A stretch of DNA of 63,511 nt from Deltaproteobacteria bacterium (GTDB lineage Bacteria; Myxococcota_A; UBA9160; SZUA-336). Position numbers and translations under genes: made by a program. The notes under the pieces are model-generated. The model saw nothing but the letters and a program-made list of their open reading frames with translations. It made no database searches and was not told the DNA's origin. Shown here piece by piece: positions 20,583 through 26,855 of this stretch. Numbering within the stretch: position 1 is the stretch's first letter; every line of letters starts with the position of its first letter. The stretch lies in the NCBI GenBank assembly GCA_019311115.1, contig JAFDDB010000005.1, positions 1 through 63,511 of the forward strand. Direction: 5' to 3'.

Positions 20583-21737
20583 TCAGGCGACCTTCACGGT
20601 CTCGGGAAGCTTGCGGGTCAGGATGTCGGCGGCTTGTTCGACCAGGTCGGCGACGATCTGGCCGGCGGGCTTGATGTCGTGGATCAGGCCGGAGACCTGG
20701 CCGGCGAACGGCGCCACGTACTCGGTCTTGCCCGCCTGGTTGAACATGTCGACCATCGCCGACGCCAGCAGGGCCTGCAGCGGGAAGGGCAGCGCCTCGA
20801 GGCCCGACTCCTCCCACAGGTCGTGGAAGCGGTTGTAGGTCGTGCGCGAGGTCTTTCCCGTGTAGATGTAGGTGCGGCGCGTGTCCTCGTCGGTGGCGTC
20901 CACCATGTGCTGCTTCTGCACGTCGAGCGCTCCGCCCTCGTCGGACGCCAGGAAGCGCGTGCCGACCCAGACTCCGATGCAGCCCATGGCGAGCGCCGCA
21001 GCCACGCCGCGGCCGTCGCCGATCCCCCCCGCGGCGAGCACCGGTGTCGGCGCGCAGGCGTCGATGGCCTGCGGCCAGAGCGCCATCGAGCCGACGCGGC
21101 CGGTGTGGCCTCCGCCCTCGTGCCCCTGCGCGACGACCAGGTCCGAGCCCGACCGCGCGATGCGGCCGGCGTTCTTGGAGTTGCCCGCGATGCCCAGCAC
21201 CTTCATGCCCGCGGCGTGCGCGGACTCGACCATGAAGCCGGGGTCGCCGAGGCCGGCGCAGAAGAGCGGCACCTGCTGCTCGATGCACGCTTCGACCGCG
21301 GCGTGCGGCCGCGACACGGTCGATCCGGCGCTGATCGCCACCTGGATGTCCGGCAGGCCGAAGTCCTCCTTCACCTTCATCATCCACTCGAAGTGCGCGC
21401 GCGGCAGCGCCGCGAGCGCGTCGGCGAGCGGGATGTTGCCGGCGTCGCGAACGGGCGCGTCGCCCTGCCGGACCTGCTGTGCGGGGAGCAGCAGGTCCAC
21501 GCCGAACGGCTTGTCGGTGAGCTTGCGGATCTCCTGGATCTTCTCGCGCAGCTCCTCGACGGAGTAGCCGGCTCCGCCGAGCACTCCCAGGCCTCCGGCC
21601 TCGGAGACGGCCACCACCAGCCCGACCGGCGCACCGGTTTCCTCGCCGATCAGGCTCGGTCCCATTCCCGCGCTCAGGATCGGGTACTCGATCCCCAGCA
21701 TGTCGCAGAGCGGCGTTCTGAGTGTCCGTCGTGCCAA
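20583..21737 (-). CDS. nitronate monooxygenase / FabK-like flavin oxidoreductase
   Basis: PILSAGMG, VSEAGGLG, QGHEGGGH, AAGGIGDG and VGTRFL motifs; TTG start after GGAGG. Confidence 0.9.
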   Translation of the reverse strand: MARRTLRTPLCDMLGIEYPILSAGMGPSLIGEETGAPVGLVVAVSEAGGLGVLGGAGYSVEELREKIQEIRKLTDKPFGVDLLLPAQQVRQGDAPVRDAGNIPLADALAALPRAHFEWMMKVKEDFGLPDIQVAISAGSTVSRPHAAVEACIEQQVPLFCAGLGDPGFMVESAHAAGMKVLGIAGNSKNAGRIARSGSDLVVAQGHEGGGHTGRVGSMALWPQAIDACAPTPVLAAGGIGDGRGVAAALAMGCIGVWVGTRFLASDEGGALDVQKQHMVDATDEDTRRTYIYTGKTSRTTYNRFHDLWEESGLEALPFPLQALLASAMVDMFNQAGKTEYVAPFAGQVSGLIHDIKPAGQIVADLVEQAADILTRKLPETVKVA

Positions 21738-21862
21738 GGGGGCCTCCTCGCAGGGATTTGCGTGGGGCGGCGAGCTGCCGTGGTGCCCGCACTCTACCCC
21801 AGCAGAGACGCCGAGAGGCGCGTCCCTCGGCACGCCTCGGGCGTCGGGGCGCGAAGAAGTGC

Positions 21863-23170
21863 TCAGTCGTGCGAGCAGGCGGGGCGCGCGTCGGTCACGC
21901 CGAAGCGCTCGGGGAAGCGGGCGTCGTACGCGATGGTGCCGCGCGACGGCGGGCCGAAGCGGTCGGGGTCGAGGGCGCGTAACGCCTCGGCGGCCAGGAT
22001 GCCGCCGCAGATCATGTTGGTGCCCGGCAGCGTCAGGGCCTGCGCCAGCGAGCAGGTGGCGCGGTCGCTCTCTTCGTCGGCCAGCTCGGCGAGCCGCGGA
22101 ATGCGGTGTGCCAGGCACGCCGTCTCGCCGGGCAAGTAGACGCGGTGCTGCGCCGCGAGCGGGGAGCTGCCCGCCTCGGCGAGCGGCACGCCGTCGGCTA
22201 GCGAGCAGTCGTTCAGGTAGCGGCGCGCGGCAAAGGTGTCGGGACAGGCGATGCGCAGCGACGGCCGGCCGAGCCGTACCAGCCGGTCCTCGTAGCGGAC
22301 CGGCATCGGCCGTAGGTCGACGCCGGCGTCGGTCAGGACCGCCAGCTTCTCCGCCATCACGACCGCCTTCGGCCGGCCGATGTCGTCGGCCGAGAAGGAG
22401 GGCTGGATCGCCAGGTTCTCGGGGCCCACCCGGTCGAAGTCGAAGATGCGCAGCTCGCAGCGGTCGCCGAGCAGCGGAGCCAGCGACTCCAGCAGGTGCG
22501 TGCCCACGCCGCCGGCGCCGATCACGTCGATGATCGCGTCCTCGACGAACGCGTCCTTCCAGTCGCTCGCGTCCGTGCCCGGCGCCGGCGTCCGGTCTTC
22601 GCCCGCCACGTCGAAGCGGACCTCGGCCGCGGCGGGCGCAGCGTCCACGAGCCGTCCCGCGCCGATCAGCGCCTCTTGGAGCAGCAGCCCCGCGGCGATC
22701 CGCGCGACCGGCGCGATGGGCTCGGCCGCGGTCCGGACGGCCGCGGCTTCGTCGACGGCCAGCGCCAGCATGGACACGCCGGTCGAGGTCCAGTCGAGCG
22801 AGGCGAACGCGCTCGTGTCGTTCGCGAAGTGGGCGCAGCGGCGGCGCACCTGGGGAGAGCTTCCCAGGTGCAGGACGACGCCGAAGGTCCCGTCGTCGGC
22901 GCGTCCCAGGTCGCCCAGGTACAGCGTGGGCATCGACTCGAACTCGGCTGCGGGCATCAGCGTCGACAGGTCGCCGACGGACGGGCCCGACGCGGCGAGC
23001 TGGACCTGGCCGAAGCCCAGCGCTTGCAGGCCGCGGCAGAGCGCCCACGCCGGGTGGTCCCACGGAAGGCCGCGAGGCGAGTCGTCGAGCACGACCAGCA
23101 CGCCGGTCTCGGCGATGCGCAGCGCGTCGGCGCCGGCCTGCGCCAGGCGGTCTTCGGGGCGGGCCGTCAC
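21863..23170 (-). CDS. E1-like ThiF-family adenylyltransferase with N-terminal degenerate ThiF-like domain (435 aa)
   Basis: GAGGVG (218-223), DFD..GPENLAIQ, IGRPK, CPDTFAARRYLND, candidate catalytic Cys373 (RATCS). GTG start overlaps the upstream TGA. Confidence 0.88.
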   Translation of the reverse strand: MTARPEDRLAQAGADALRIAETGVLVVLDDSPRGLPWDHPAWALCRGLQALGFGQVQLAASGPSVGDLSTLMPAAEFESMPTLYLGDLGRADDGTFGVVLHLGSSPQVRRRCAHFANDTSAFASLDWTSTGVSMLALAVDEAAAVRTAAEPIAPVARIAAGLLLQEALIGAGRLVDAAPAAAEVRFDVAGEDRTPAPGTDASDWKDAFVEDAIIDVIGAGGVGTHLLESLAPLLGDRCELRIFDFDRVGPENLAIQPSFSADDIGRPKAVVMAEKLAVLTDAGVDLRPMPVRYEDRLVRLGRPSLRIACPDTFAARRYLNDCSLADGVPLAEAGSSPLAAQHRVYLPGETACLAHRIPRLAELADEESDRATCSLAQALTLPGTNMICGGILAAEALRALDPDRFGPPSRGTIAYDARFPERFGVTDARPACSHD

Positions 23171-23919
23171 AGTGTCTCCGCGAGGGCAGGTGCGGGGGTG
23201 GGGTCGAACACGACCTTCTCGGCGATCTCCAACGCCAGCCGGCGCCGCAGCGCGTCGCGCTGCGACGTGGACAGGATGACGCGGCCGGCGCTCTCGAGTT
23301 GCGCGGGGATCTCGCGGACCTGGCGGCGGCCGCACATTGGACAGGTGTCGACGCGCGCCGCGTAGATCTCGTAGTCGCGCTCGCGGTTCACGATCAGCGA
23401 AAAGCAGACCGCGTACTCCTGGTGCAGGTTGCGGATCACGCCGCCGGTAAAGGCGGCGTCGCGCCAGAGCTGGACCATGCCCGCGCAGCCGCAGCGCGGG
23501 TGTCCGGGGCCGATCGGCACGGCCTCGGTCCAGCTGATCGCGGTGGACACCTGGTCGATGAACACGCCGGTCAGGAACTCGCGATCGACCACCGAGGCGG
23601 TGCACGGCCCGGGATGCCGGTGCACGAACGTGATCGGCACCAGGCGCCGCCCCATGCGCGCGGAGAGGGTCTCGATCTCGCGCCGCATCCGCAGCACGTC
23701 GTGCCCGGACTGCTCGACCGTCGAGACGGTCACGCGCTGGCCGCGCAGCAGCGGCGTGGCGATCACGTGGAACGGGTCGTCCTCGGTCGCCAGGCCGAGC
23801 ATCGCGTACTCGGACCTGGGGCTGGCGAAGTCGTAGGCCAGGATGTCGGCGGCCAGGAAGCAGCGCTCGAGCGCGAGCGCGTCGAATGACAGCGCGGCGC
23901 CTGCGTACAGGTCGAACAT
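23167..23919 (-). CDS. JAB/MPN+ (JAMM) metallopeptidase, 250 aa
   Basis: E37 (SEYAMLGL) ... H100-R-H102-x6-S109-xx-D112. ATG overlaps the upstream TGA (TGATG). Confidence 0.8.
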   Translation of the reverse strand: MFDLYAGAALSFDALALERCFLAADILAYDFASPRSEYAMLGLATEDDPFHVIATPLLRGQRVTVSTVEQSGHDVLRMRREIETLSARMGRRLVPITFVHRHPGPCTASVVDREFLTGVFIDQVSTAISWTEAVPIGPGHPRCGCAGMVQLWRDAAFTGGVIRNLHQEYAVCFSLIVNRERDYEIYAARVDTCPMCGRRQVREIPAQLESAGRVILSTSQRDALRRRLALEIAEKVVFDPTPAPALAETL

Positions 23920-24995
23920 CAGAACGGGACCTCCTCTTCGTGGCGCGCCGTGCGCTCGCGCCACATGCGGTGGAACTCCGGCCGGTCGGTCGCCAGGATC
24001 GCCCCGGCGTCGAGCCACTGGACGACGGCCTCGGCGTCGCTGAAGCGCTTCGACAGCAGGCGCTGGTACTGCGCGAGCGTGCCCATGCAGAGGCCGGCGC
24101 GCACCGGTTGGCCCGACCGTCCCCACAGGCCGCGCTCGCTGCGCGACAGCGACGGCGCGAGGGAAAGACGTTCGGCCCGGGTGCGGCCCCGCACGTTCAG
24201 CGCGACGAACACGGTCCCCTGTCCGGTGCGAACCGGCAGGGGACCGCGCACCAGCAGCCAGGACCCCCCGCAGTACTGGAGCTGGTGTTGGTCGTCGCGG
24301 TGGAAGACGCTGCGGCTGCCGCGTTTCTCGGGCTCGTACAGGCTGAGGATCGCGTGCACGGCGCCGGAGAACTCCTTCAGCCGCGTCTTCGTGCCCTCGT
24401 CGGACATCACCGCGACGCGCATGTGCGCGCGCAGGGCGACCCCCGCGCGACGGACGAACTCGTTCAGCGACTCGGTGCGGTCGAGGCAGTAGCGGTAGGT
24501 GTGGCCGTTCAGCTCGACGTGGAAGTCGGACTTCCGCTTGCGCGTGGCCCGCTCGATCGGGATCACCGACCGCGCCAGGATCGCGCACGGCGCGCCGAGC
24601 GACTCGGCGAGATCCTCGGCGTACGGCTCCAACGCCAGGTGGTCGTCGACCGCCGCCTCGAGCTCGCGGGCACGGCGCGCCAGTTCGTCGAGCGTCCCCG
24701 GCGCGCCCGCGGGGGGCGCGCCGGAGAGGGACTTCAGGTAGGGGAGCAGCTCCGCCAGGCAGAACTGCAGGTCGTGGACCCGGGCCAGCAGCGGCCCGGC
24801 GTCGCCGAGCACGTCCGGGTGGTACTGCGCGCGGCCGGGGCGGATCCCCGACACCGTCTGCGCGTAGTCCCCGACCGATCCGACGCGACGGACCTTCGCC
24901 TTGGGCCCGGGGCCCGCGGAGAAGACGCCCCCTTCGAGGAGGAACGTCCTTTCGCGCGGGCCGCGGGCGAAGCGCGGGCGTTCCAGGTCGATCAC
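23919..24995 (-). CDS. 358-aa protein with putative divergent C-terminal E2/UBC-like domain
   Basis: GTG start overlaps the upstream TGA; strong GC3 bias. Beta-rich segment, then GLCMG (Cys303), then an amphipathic helix (AEAVVQWLDAGAILA). Function inferred from context. Confidence 0.6.
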   Translation of the reverse strand: MIDLERPRFARGPRERTFLLEGGVFSAGPGPKAKVRRVGSVGDYAQTVSGIRPGRAQYHPDVLGDAGPLLARVHDLQFCLAELLPYLKSLSGAPPAGAPGTLDELARRARELEAAVDDHLALEPYAEDLAESLGAPCAILARSVIPIERATRKRKSDFHVELNGHTYRYCLDRTESLNEFVRRAGVALRAHMRVAVMSDEGTKTRLKEFSGAVHAILSLYEPEKRGSRSVFHRDDQHQLQYCGGSWLLVRGPLPVRTGQGTVFVALNVRGRTRAERLSLAPSLSRSERGLWGRSGQPVRAGLCMGTLAQYQRLLSKRFSDAEAVVQWLDAGAILATDRPEFHRMWRERTARHEEEVPF

Positions 24996-25351
24996 GCACC
25001 GCCCCCGCGGTAGCTCTCGGAGATCATGATCGTGTACTCGTCGGTGTCGGACTTCTGGTCGCCGCCGGGGCCGTGCACGACCGTGTCGTCCAGCGAGATC
25101 GGCTGCCCGGTCGCGCTCGAGCCCTGCACCACCTCGATGTCGATCTGGCGCGTGCTGCGCAGCACCTCGCCCACCACCGCGGCGGTGCGCGACGCCGGGC
25201 CGCGCACCTGGCGGCACTCGATCACGCGGTTTACGAGCTGGCGGGCCGACAGGCCCTCGACCGTTCGGCGAGCGAAGCGGCCACCGCAGCTGGCGCCGAG
25301 TCCGTAGGCCACGCCGATCGTGACCTCTCCGGGGGTCTTCGAAATCCTCAT
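24992..25351 (-). CDS. putative ubiquitin-like (beta-grasp) protein precursor, 119 aa
   Basis: Small first gene of the E2-like/JAB/E1 operon. Terminal strand YTIMISE followed by SYRGGGA; purine-rich RBS AGAGGCAGGA. Confidence 0.7.
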   Translation of the reverse strand: MRISKTPGEVTIGVAYGLGASCGGRFARRTVEGLSARQLVNRVIECRQVRGPASRTAAVVGEVLRSTRQIDIEVVQGSSATGQPISLDDTVVHGPGGDQKSDTDEYTIMISESYRGGGA

Positions 25352-25503
25352 GGTTCCTGCCTCTCTTCTGTTTGGAGTTGTGCGATTCCCTCAGTCGTGA
25401 GAGATTCGGTACATCGGGGCGGGTGAGACGTTCACGGCCGATCCGGGTACAGGAGCCATGGTGCCATGCGGCAAGTGAAATGCAAGATTGAAATCATCAC
25501 TAA

Positions 25504-25516
25504 AATCAAATAGTTA
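25504..25516 (+). promoter_or_regulatory. IHF consensus site in divergent promoter region
   Basis: AATCAAATAGTTA matches WATCAANNNNTTR exactly, with an A/T-rich 5' flank. Confidence 0.6.
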
Positions 25517-25595
25517 CGACAGTTTGCCGAGTCTGGCAGGCTTCCGGGGGGACGGGTTCCACGGTTTGGTCGTGTCGCTATGCGGTGGTGACTCT

Positions 25596-25686
25596 ATTTC
25601 TACAATCGATTACTGATCGACATAGATCATGGAATGTTTTGGGATCCGAACTACAGAACCGACAATTCTGATGGAATCGTAGAAAT
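25596..25686. promoter_or_regulatory. inverted repeat ATTTCTAC(A/G)AT (25596-25606 / 25676-25686), candidate operator half-sites
   Basis: 10/11 inverted match within an AT-rich island upstream of the regulator gene. Confidence 0.4.
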
Positions 25687-25721
25687 GCAAGGGTCGAGAT
25701 CGACGAGGAGGGACAGGATCC

Positions 25722-26855
25722 ATGACCGGCGGGCAGGTGAGCGACACGACGGAGACGAGCAACGACGGCGGAACGGGGCGGGCCAAGGCCAGCGAAGAGG
25801 GGCGCAAGCCGCGGAAGAAGCGGGCCAACGCCAAGCGGGGCGACCTGGAGCGCCCCGAGCTCGAGGCGGTGGTCTGTGACTACTTCTGCCACCAGGGGCT
25901 GACGGCCCCGGAAATCCAGAAGAGCGTGCGCAAGGAGTTCGGCATCCGGATCACGCGCGAGGAGGCCTACCGCTTCGTGCGCAAGGCTGCGCGCAGCGGG
26001 TGGATCACGTACACGCCGCCGCAGGACTACGCCCTGCACCGCGGCATCAAGGAGCAGCGCTACCCCTGGCTGCAGGGTGTGTCGGTGGTCGAGACCGGCA
26101 ACTGCGAGGGCGTGGCGTCGCGCGGCGCGCAGATGCTGATGGAACTGCTGCAGCAGCACTACGCCGGCAAGGAGGTACACGTCGGTTTCTCCGGCGGATA
26201 CGGGCTGCGCAAGCTGGCGATGGCGTTCAGCCGCATGTTGCGCGAGCCGACCGAGCGGCTGCCGGAGCGCATCGTCTTCCACGCAATGGTCGCCGGCTTC
26301 GACGTCGACGAGCCGACCACCGATCCGAACGCGTTCTTCGCGTACTTCGTGCAGGATCCGGCGATGCAGGTCGAGACGTCGTTCGTCGGACTCCACGCGC
26401 CGGCGATGGCGCGCCCGGGTCTGCTCGAGGAGCTGACCGACCTGCCGGGCATCCGCGAGGCGTACCAGCGCTCGCACGAGATCAACGTGATCGTCAGCGG
26501 GGCCAGCTGCTGGAGCGACGACCACTCGCCGCTGCGCCGCTACCTCGACGTGGCGGGCGAGCCGCTCGGCGCCCTCGGAGAGGCGGGCTGCGTCGGGGAC
26601 TTCCTGTGGCAGCCGGTGGGCACCGAGGGTCCCCTCGAGATGGACACCGCGCTCAAGGCGATGACCCTCAAGCAGCTCGACGAGGTCGGCACCTTCGTCG
26701 AAGAGAAGAACCACGTGCTGCTCGTCGCCGGCCCGTGCAGCCAGTGCCACCATCCCAAGACCGAGGTCGTCAACGCAATCCTCAACCAGGACCGCCAGCT
26801 CATCACGCACCTGGCCATCGACAGCCGCTGCGCCCGCGACCTGCTCGCGCTCTAA
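25722..26855 (+). CDS. SorC/DeoR(CggR/LsrR)-family transcriptional regulator (HTH plus sugar-phosphate-binding domain)
   Basis: HTH-like QGLTAPEIQKSVRKEFGIRITREEAYRFVRKAARSGWI; VGFSGG, LHAPA, GCVGDFL and ITHLAIDSRCA motifs; GAGGAGGG RBS region. Confidence 0.8.
   Translation: MTGGQVSDTTETSNDGGTGRAKASEEGRKPRKKRANAKRGDLERPELEAVVCDYFCHQGLTAPEIQKSVRKEFGIRITREEAYRFVRKAARSGWITYTPPQDYALHRGIKEQRYPWLQGVSVVETGNCEGVASRGAQMLMELLQQHYAGKEVHVGFSGGYGLRKLAMAFSRMLREPTERLPERIVFHAMVAGFDVDEPTTDPNAFFAYFVQDPAMQVETSFVGLHAPAMARPGLLEELTDLPGIREAYQRSHEINVIVSGASCWSDDHSPLRRYLDVAGEPLGALGEAGCVGDFLWQPVGTEGPLEMDTALKAMTLKQLDEVGTFVEEKNHVLLVAGPCSQCHHPKTEVVNAILNQDRQLITHLAIDSRCARDLLAL

Follow-up and report, generated by a model that had tools for sequence, protein, structure and literature searches.

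A candidate ubiquitin-like precursor with a conserved Gly-Gly end, encoded in a divergent Bil-like four-gene cassette of Myxococcota and Planctomycetota genomes

To our knowledge, ubiquitin-like conjugation in bacteria has so far been shown in type II CBASS (antiphage systems that signal through cyclic oligonucleotides), Bil and Bub systems. As set out by Chambers et al. (10.1101/2023.09.26.559546), the Bil operon runs in the order ubiquitin-like protein (Ubl), conjugating enzyme (E2), JAB peptidase and activating enzyme (E1), named BilA, BilB, BilC and BilD. The type II Bil Ubl is described there as carrying a conserved glycine followed by up to nine unconserved residues, with BilC cutting after the glycine, and type II Bil corresponds to class 6c/CEHH in the classification of Iyer et al. 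2006 (PMC1779556). The E1 and E2 of Bub are reported to lack the catalytic cysteine and to use oxyesters (PMC11601596), and in the archaeon Caldiarchaeum the ubiquitin homologue is described as being processed by an Rpn11 homologue (PMC6043591). Here we describe a cassette of four genes, A to D, on a 63,511-nucleotide stretch of DNA (hereafter the window; contig JAFDDB010000005.1 of the Deltaproteobacteria bacterium assembly GCA_019311115.1). Gene A had been proposed in an earlier note, made from the letters of the window, to encode a Ubl produced as a capped precursor. By analogy with Bil, we consider it reasonably probable that the gene A protein is a beta-grasp Ubl precursor in which Gly118-Ala119 follow a conserved Gly-Gly, and that it would be matured and conjugated in a Bil-like manner. 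The features of gene A on which this reading is built are as follows.

24992 to 25351 (stop included), minus strand: gene A, predicted precursor of a 119-amino-acid (aa) ubiquitin-like (beta-grasp) protein, based on the open reading frame (ORF), the AlphaFold2 (AF2) model, fold matches and family
25001 to 25021, minus strand: conserved C-terminal motif SESYRGG, residues 111–117, based on near-invariance in the alignment and the Gly-Gly tally
24995 to 25000, minus strand: two-residue cap Gly118-Ala119, predicted to be removed; the tails at this place in the family are 0–21 aa long and unconserved

Gene A starts with an ATG at 25351 and stops at 24994-24992. The C-terminal end of its product reads YTIMISESYRGGGA, the last residues being SESYRGG-GA-stop. 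The 119-aa ORF was thus found where the earlier note had placed it, on the minus strand, which the note had not given, and both the PISLDDTV stretch (residues 84–91) and the SYRGG-GA-stop end that it had pointed out are present in the translation. Because the G+C content of the window is 70% (0.70) and chance ORFs, many of them long, are common in it, support from outside the window was needed for gene A. The same composition would favor a quite different explanation, namely that gene A is a chance open frame or that its Gly-Gly end is a coincidence.

A word-based search with the gene A protein returned only eight clusters, at 55–100% identity. Seven of these were full length, and all seven end in SE[SNA]YRGG followed by GA, LA, GA, GA, A, A or V. 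When a profile built from the eight sequences was run against 1.84 billion representatives, 84 proteins were matched at E≤1e-3, 58 at E≤1e-10 and 4 at E≤1e-30. Two of the 84, P0070 and P0090, are long repeat proteins in which 12 and 6 stretches matched, respectively, and on inspection they were judged to be false positives. We then tallied the C-termini of 90 short proteins using the motif [STNG][EKH]xxx[GA]G, looked for in the final 35 residues. This S-E-x-x-x-G-G end was present in 86 proteins, 84 with GG and 2 with AG; the remaining four are 70–104 aa long and were taken as fragments. What follows the Gly-Gly differs from protein to protein: 21 stop there, 34 carry 1–3 further residues and 31 carry 4–21 (n = 86), so that tails of 1–21 aa, with no conservation, are found in 65 of the 86. 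The residue preceding the Gly-Gly is Arg in 43 proteins, Val in 26 and Lys in 6. In an 83-sequence alignment, G117 is invariant and Y16, G17, A57, S111, E112 and G116 are nearly invariant. All 17 copies of gene A found in related loci (see below) end in xSExxxGG plus 0–13 residues. The C-terminal Gly-Gly is therefore conserved among homologues, as the earlier note had expected, and its view of a capped precursor gains support from residues after the Gly-Gly that vary both in number (0–21) and in sequence, as a removable cap would. Gly117 is the predicted mature end of the protein.

The G-rich codons for RGGGA (24995-25012 in the window) lie right before the start codon GTG of gene B and overlap with it. 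These Gly codons and the tail of gene A may also serve as the ribosome-binding region of gene B.

We modeled the structure of the gene A protein with AF2. A model from 8 sequences had a predicted local distance difference test (pLDDT) value of 48.8 and was discarded for one from 83 sequences, with a pLDDT of 91.1 and a predicted template modeling score (pTM) of 0.84. In this model, strands b1 (9–16) and b2 (21–27) are followed by a short helix (28–31), helices at 36–45 and 52–65, and strands b3 (70–76), b4 (83–85) and b5 (105–112), after which the YRGGGA end is free. The strand-strand-helix-strand pattern noticed earlier is present, albeit with two helices versus the one of ubiquitin, and the final hydrophobic strand corresponds to YTIMISES at 105–112. 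The extra length had been attributed to an inserted helix; an added helix accounts for part of it, and a long variable acidic loop at 86–104 for another part.

The best rows of a Foldseek search against the PDB were all Ubl domains, including USP7-UBL, SUMO2/3, NEDD8, ISG15, bacterial BilA, Caldiarchaeum ubiquitin and MoaD, with a best E-value of 3.2e-3 and probabilities up to 1.00. VIA-align, run against 48,161 chains, gave SAMP1 as the best match (Z 6.8, root-mean-square deviation 2.4 Å, 75 residues aligned), and also returned RnfH (Z 6.4), a Methylobacterium multi-ubiquitin protein (Z 6.1), BubA (Z 5.9), BilA (Z 5.9), MoaD (Z 5.8) and CysO (Z 5.8). A second look with VIA-align over Foldseek's own matches added a Citrobacter multi-ubiquitin domain (Z 6.5). 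The top rows of both tools are thus Ubls and other beta-grasp domains, in line with the beta-grasp fold suggested in the earlier note. Because the match list is uniform and coverage is near full-length, the predicted fold is called beta-grasp, with two insertions, a second helix and a long loop.

Gene A is followed by three further genes on the same strand and leads an operon with translational coupling, in which the four are joined by overlaps of GTGA (A/B), TGATG (B/C) and GTGA (C/D).

23919 to 24995, minus strand: gene B, 358 aa, no known family, in the E2 slot; its GTG start overlaps the stop of A (GTGA)
23167 to 23919, minus strand: gene C, 250 aa, probably a metallopeptidase of the JAMM/JAB type, with CxxC in its C-terminal part; one base is common to its ATG and the stop of B
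21863 to 23170, minus strand: gene D, 435 aa, E1-like; its GTG start overlaps the stop of C (GTGA)

Homologues of gene C fell into 28 clusters, of which 27 were aligned (alignment A5), and this alignment was used to fetch related DNA. A total of 21 loci were obtained, 14 from metagenomes and 7 from metagenome-assembled genomes (MAGs) labeled as uncultured delta proteobacterium (2), Myxococcota, Pirellulales (2), Planctomycetota and Planctomycetales. A profile search over all six-frame ORFs revealed the identical order and strand, A-B-C-D, in 21 of 21 loci. Gene A was present in all 10 metagenome loci that continue past B on its upstream side, and likewise in all 7 genome loci; the other four metagenome loci end inside or just before B. 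Two loci (L008 and L023) are identical over the compared segment and probably come from one organism, so the loci are not all independent. With length and motif kept in 84 representatives, a confident fold (the pLDDT given above) and synteny kept in 17 of 17 loci, the notion of a chance frame in a G+C-rich genome is already refuted, and we give it practically no weight.

Gene D is the only cassette protein with a Pfam match. ThiF (PF00899) covers its residues 214–403 at 3.2e-26, after an N-terminal domain of about 210 aa, and was found in all nine gene D homologues. Across nine sequences, G218, G220, G223, D244, D246, N252, K268, D311, R316, C352, C373, C432 and H434 are invariant, and H355 is also common to all nine. 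The positions from G218 to R316 match what we take to be the ThiF-family adenylation signature. C352, H355, C432 and H434 could possibly form a structural metal site, and the segment of about 35 aa between Y345 and T380, which holds C373, is taken as the crossover loop.

The best PDB sequence match of the gene D protein was the NEDD8 E1 UBA3 (2.4e-9), followed by MoeB, SAE2, UBA7, ThiF, MccB and UBA5; BilD was not among the matches at E≤0.01. PADLOC Cap2-type models matched the adenylation region weakly (best 9.7e-9), and the PADLOC BilD model gave weak matches in 5 of 9 E1s (2.3e-6 to 6e-3). The BilD match was collinear, with model positions 148–319 lying on residues 155–327 of the E1 of locus L014. 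PF14459 was absent from 9 of 9 gene D E1s at E≤1. Among NCBIfam models, PRTRC_ThiF reached 40.4 bits (cut-off 144.75) and the SAMP E1 model 34.6 bits (cut-off 450). An hhalign comparison of the N-terminal part (~205 aa) with the C-terminal half scored 17.5 at a probability of 0.6%, versus 10.9–13.8 for controls, and was not significant; we infer that the N-terminal domain may be an inactive adenylation domain.

As a separate observation on gene D, the E1 gene is interrupted by an in-frame TAG at one and the same position in two loci (L008:6034-6036 and L023:8960-8962, which are identical around this stop codon). This could be a pseudogene or a sequencing error, or perhaps a case of read-through.

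In gene C, seven residues are invariant across 27 sequences (E37, H100, H102, S109, D112, C193 and C196), and the central ones form the following element.

23584 to 23622, minus strand: JAMM-like metal-binding motif H100-R-H-P-G-P-C-T-A-S-V-V-D112 of gene C, based on the 27-sequence alignment

The spacing from E37 to the HxH is 63 aa, versus 64 in a bona fide Prok-JAB protein of a relative. Searches of PDB sequences with the peptidase, as a single sequence or as a profile, returned nothing meaningful, and PF14464 matched another gene in the same genome, not gene C. Judging from the motif, gene C probably encodes a JAMM/JAB metallopeptidase. The JAB that had been noted as co-encoded with gene A therefore holds as far as the invariant JAMM motif residues go, whereas no JAB model matches the protein. 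In one locus (L024:7146-8721), the peptidase gene lies in two frames (profile positions 4–143 and 135–249), which suggests a frameshift.

Gene B occupies the place that the E2 takes in the Bil order. Sixteen sequences were aligned (A8), and the residue of most interest is the following.

24087 to 24089, minus strand: codon of Cys303 of gene B, candidate thioester site, invariant in 16 of 16 sequences

Cys303 is the only invariant cysteine of the protein and lies in a G-x-C-x-G loop ahead of conserved helices. D234, H237, Q238 and H342 are near-invariant, H342 sits 39 residues after C303, and the C-terminus is conserved and helical. In Atlas, a protein-language-model resource, the nearest named clusters to gene B were Prok-E2_D, UQ_con, UFC1 and E2-CBASS, at scores of 0.76–0.79; since such a score counts from 0.9, these are a lead only. 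By analogy, we infer that the gene B product is an E2-like carrier.

There is, however, a second way to read gene B, in which the gene A protein is a genuine E1-activated Ubl and B is not an E2 but its main target, a scaffold, or an adaptor or effector under the control of tagging, with the E1 transferring A directly, as happens in E2-independent systems. No match for gene B was obtained in Pfam (0/16), among the PADLOC Bil/CBASS models (0/14) or among PDB sequences, E2s included. The protein is also twice as large as BilB, for which the PADLOC model has 159 positions, and the N-terminal half of gene B has no assigned fold. In the Planctomycetales MAG, B and the peptidase form one 666-aa open frame (L025:6723-8720), either a natural fusion or an assembly frameshift; this single ORF ties B functionally to the peptidase, and a fusion would suit a substrate or a regulator equally well. 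What speaks for an E2-like carrier instead is the position of B in the Bil order, the exactly one invariant cysteine in a Gly-flanked loop before conserved helices, and the four nearest named Atlas clusters, all of them E2 families, if weakly. We regard the reading in which B is not an E2 as rather unlikely. The E2 reference sequences BilB (PDLC03845) and Prok-E2_D (PF14460) gave no match in 150 and 300 genomes of the phylum, respectively.

What the sequences themselves show is the predicted fold, the conserved Gly-Gly with its variable tails, the order of the four genes, the invariant residues of catalytic type and the ThiF domain; the scheme that we propose goes further. By analogy with Bil, the gene C peptidase would cut the gene A protein after Gly117, and the E1 encoded by gene D would adenylate the freed carboxylate. 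The Ubl would probably then pass to a cysteine in the short crossover loop of D, for which Cys373 is the candidate, and from there to gene B, an unusual E2-like carrier that would hand it to target proteins via Cys303. The gene C peptidase may also remove the tag from targets.

Several results weigh against this scheme. None of 83 members of the Ubl family matched any Pfam Ubl family (ubiquitin, ThiS, Prok_Ub and others) at E≤1, the gene A protein of the window has no NCBIfam or PADLOC match, and 0 of 44 sampled Ubls matched the PADLOC Bil/CBASS models. The fold scores are modest, with nothing at E≤1e-3 in Foldseek against the PDB and every VIA-align Z below 8, the level under which the tool warns of a common arrangement. 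The codons of the tail overlap the gene B start (GTGA), so the degree of gene overlap could help to explain the variable tails, which may partly be its by-product. In gene C, the spacer from HxH to Ser is 6 residues, versus 7 in the JAMM pattern E...HxHx7Sx2D. Pfam JAB families matched 0 of 27 gene C homologues and PADLOC Bil/CBASS models 0 of 13 peptidases, and in an hhalign comparison with 30 Prok-JAB sequences gene C was aligned with their HSHP..PS..D motif but at a probability of 0.2%, the same as unrelated controls. In gene D, the Arg of what we take to be the 'NLxRQ' element of the ThiF family is not conserved (ENLAIQ), and the missing matches of gene B belong on the same side. Finally, the flanks of the cassette vary between loci and hold mostly ordinary or housekeeping genes, in the window a nitronate-monooxygenase-like gene and sulfatases, so that a role in defence is little supported.

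The main rival to conjugation is a sulfur-carrier system, in which the gene A protein would resemble ThiS, MoaD, CysO or QbsE, its Gly-Gly would be uncovered by the peptidase and adenylated by the E1, and the resulting thiocarboxylate would be the sulfur donor for a small molecule that gene B makes or takes part in making. Trimming of a capped sulfur carrier by a JAMM peptidase is known from QbsE and QbsD, and CysO, too, is served by JAMM enzymes. The best fold matches of the gene A protein include SAMP1, MoaD and CysO (Z 5.4-6.8), the short E1 crossover loop is typical of MoeB/ThiF-type enzymes rather than of those with a large Cys domain, and gene B, with no known fold, could be an enzyme. 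Sulfur-linked neighborhoods of such genes are among those described by Iyer, Burroughs and Aravind 2006 (PMC1779556). However, none of the nine E1s carries a rhodanese domain, and the flanks scanned in 16 loci hold no conserved gene for a synthase or a sulfurtransferase. This lack of a rhodanese or synthase partner disfavors a sulfur carrier. In addition, the 83 Ubls have no ThiS/MoaD Pfam match, UBA3 outranks MoeB and ThiF among the PDB matches of the E1, the extra N-terminal domain of the E1 is collinear with BilD, and the distribution is sporadic, unlike that of cofactor pathways. A sulfur carrier is accordingly an improbable explanation in our view, and we retain the Bil-like conjugation reading for the comparisons below.

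Compared with Bil, the cassette keeps the order of Ubl, second gene, JAB-type peptidase and E1 and likewise has no ligase (E3) gene. The gene A protein is a single-domain Ubl, as is BilA of type II, and in both of them the conserved Gly near the C-terminus precedes a short tail without conservation, which the peptidase can remove in Bil and is predicted to remove here. The extra N-terminal domain of about 210 aa in the cassette E1 and the collinear BilD model suggest that this E1 is probably two-domain like BilD. The differences are also considerable. The PADLOC BilA, BilB and BilC models and the Pfam Prok-JAB, Prok-E2 and Prok-E2_C models miss the cassette proteins, and the BilB model finds nothing in the genome of the window. 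The second gene encodes 358 aa, versus 159 positions in the BilB model. BilD has PF14459 and a mobile helical CYS domain, whereas the cassette E1 has only about 35 aa there (Y345-T380) and no PF14459. The cassette peptidase carries a CxxC extension, and two helices and a long acidic loop set the cassette Ubl apart. Furthermore, the hosts of the cassette are Myxococcota and Planctomycetota MAGs. Bil acts against phage by conjugating its Ubl to phage proteins, and the flanks of the cassette are mostly non-defence, L007 being the one locus with a CapH/CapP-like pair and a ResIII gene beside it.

Class 6d/PRTRC systems likewise have a small Ubl that stands alone and keeps a conserved C-terminal Gly, JAB and E1 as separate proteins, and an E2-like protein whose conserved Cys has a His downstream, as C303 of gene B has H342. 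One may speculate that gene B is a fusion of the 6d helical protein (its N-terminal half) and an E2 (its Cys-bearing C-terminal half). However, the NCBIfam PRTRC models miss A, B and C of the cassette, and PRTRC_ThiF stays below its cut-off on D. The position of E37 near the start of gene C leaves no N-terminal JAB-N domain, unlike the PRTRC JAB, and PRTRC genes have a mobile-element setting, whereas the cassette has no plasmid, phage or IMG/VR match. For these three reasons (models, JAB-N domain and setting), the cassette was ruled out as a PRTRC/6d system.

Bub (class 6e) shares with the cassette a beta-grasp Ubl released by a JAMM peptidase, and BubA is among the best fold matches of the gene A protein (Z 5.9-6.5 over the two VIA-align looks). 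In the cassette, the Cys residues are invariant instead of missing, and JAB and E1 are unfused, unlike the JAB-E1 of BubC/D. BubE is a DUF6527 protein, and no DUF6527 gene was seen among the scanned cassette-flanking ORFs of at least 140–150 aa. The conserved Cys, the unfused JAB and E1 and the missing DUF6527 gene led us to rule out Bub as well.

The archaeal SAMP1/UbaA/HvJAMM1 and Caldiarchaeum ubiquitin/Rpn11 systems also comprise Ubls that end in GG, one E1 and a JAMM peptidase, and SAMP1 is the best fold match of all. The NCBIfam SAMP E1 model remains well below its cut-off on the cassette E1. We know of no gene in the E2 slot of SAMP systems.

Most likely, by analogy with these systems, the cassette represents a Bil-like conjugation system, new and very divergent, that is found in MAGs of Myxococcota and Planctomycetota and lies outside types I and II. 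More tentatively, it could be a third, undescribed bacterial lineage of the ubiquitination type with a new carrier family (the single-Cys 358-aa protein), chromosomal in Myxococcota and Planctomycetota, paired with a divergent SorC-like or an XRE-like regulator and, in two distant lineages, with a neighboring PIG-L/LmbE-type deacetylase gene, and serving regulated housekeeping or stress tagging rather than phage defence; this broader proposal is possible but less well founded. If B is a carrier, it would add a new E2-like family, and the E1 would pair a two-domain layout like that of eukaryotes with a cysteine in a minimal crossover loop. The Arg before the Gly-Gly in the window copy means that target lysines should be left with the standard Gly-Gly remnant after trypsin, so that existing diGly proteomics would find the targets easily. 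Since Pfam, NCBIfam and PADLOC miss three of the four cassette proteins, surveys based on such models would overlook the cassette.

We also searched for the cassette in other collections. A contig scan with the Ubl alignment found no relative locus; the Ubl alignments (A2 and A3) hold no conserved stretch to search with. The Ubl profile found nothing in 400 genomes of the phylum, and in 60 relatives it was absent save for one marginal match (0.004) inside a 535-aa frame. The peptidase had no match in the plasmid, phage and IMG/VR collections, and searches of PDB sequences with the Ubl, as a single sequence or a profile, gave nothing meaningful. Part of the cassette was found in five sequencing runs, all DNA and none RNA, from marine sediment and marine metagenomes. 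A full-text literature search, whose coverage leaves out bioRxiv supplements (e.g., Bil operon tables), found no paper describing the Ubl family.

Upstream of gene A, the operon faces a divergent gene.

25352 to 25721, no strand: intergenic region of 370 bp that separates the operon from the divergent regulator gene and presumably holds a promoter region common to both
25722 to 26855, plus strand: divergent gene of 377 aa, which goes with the operon in its nearest relatives, with homologues in the same place in loci L005 and L007 at 49% identity

The 377-aa protein of the window itself has no Pfam match, and PF04198 (Sugar-bind, SorC) was found in the equivalent ORFs of L007, L019 and L020. 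From these sequences, the divergent gene probably encodes a SorC-type, metabolite-sensing regulator of the operon. In the planctomycete-type loci L008, L011 and L022, a weakly matching Cro/C1-type helix-turn-helix (HTH) protein lies upstream instead. A scan for the sigma-70 consensus over 21600-25900 of the window gave no match. A 21-nt inverted repeat (81% complementary; 25348-25368 and 25705-25725) spans, in each of the two divergent genes, the ribosome-binding site and the start codon; the two genes therefore have near-identical translation-start contexts.

Other neighbors recur in part of the loci. A gene for a PIG-L/LmbE-family deacetylase (PF02585) lies directly after D in L005, L006, L007, L019 and L024, which belong to the myxobacterial-type clade. 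Independently, in the Planctomycetales MAG, such a gene is found directly upstream of A on the same strand (L025:5447-6346). The PIG-L gene is absent from the window, and the deacetylase may be an accessory component of the cassette. An integrase was found in the flank of L021. In L007, about 1 kb downstream of the cassette (L007:8791-11887), an XRE-type HTH ORF and a Peptidase_M78 ORF form a CapH/CapP-like pair, divergent from a ResIII helicase gene, and this set may be a neighboring defence system.

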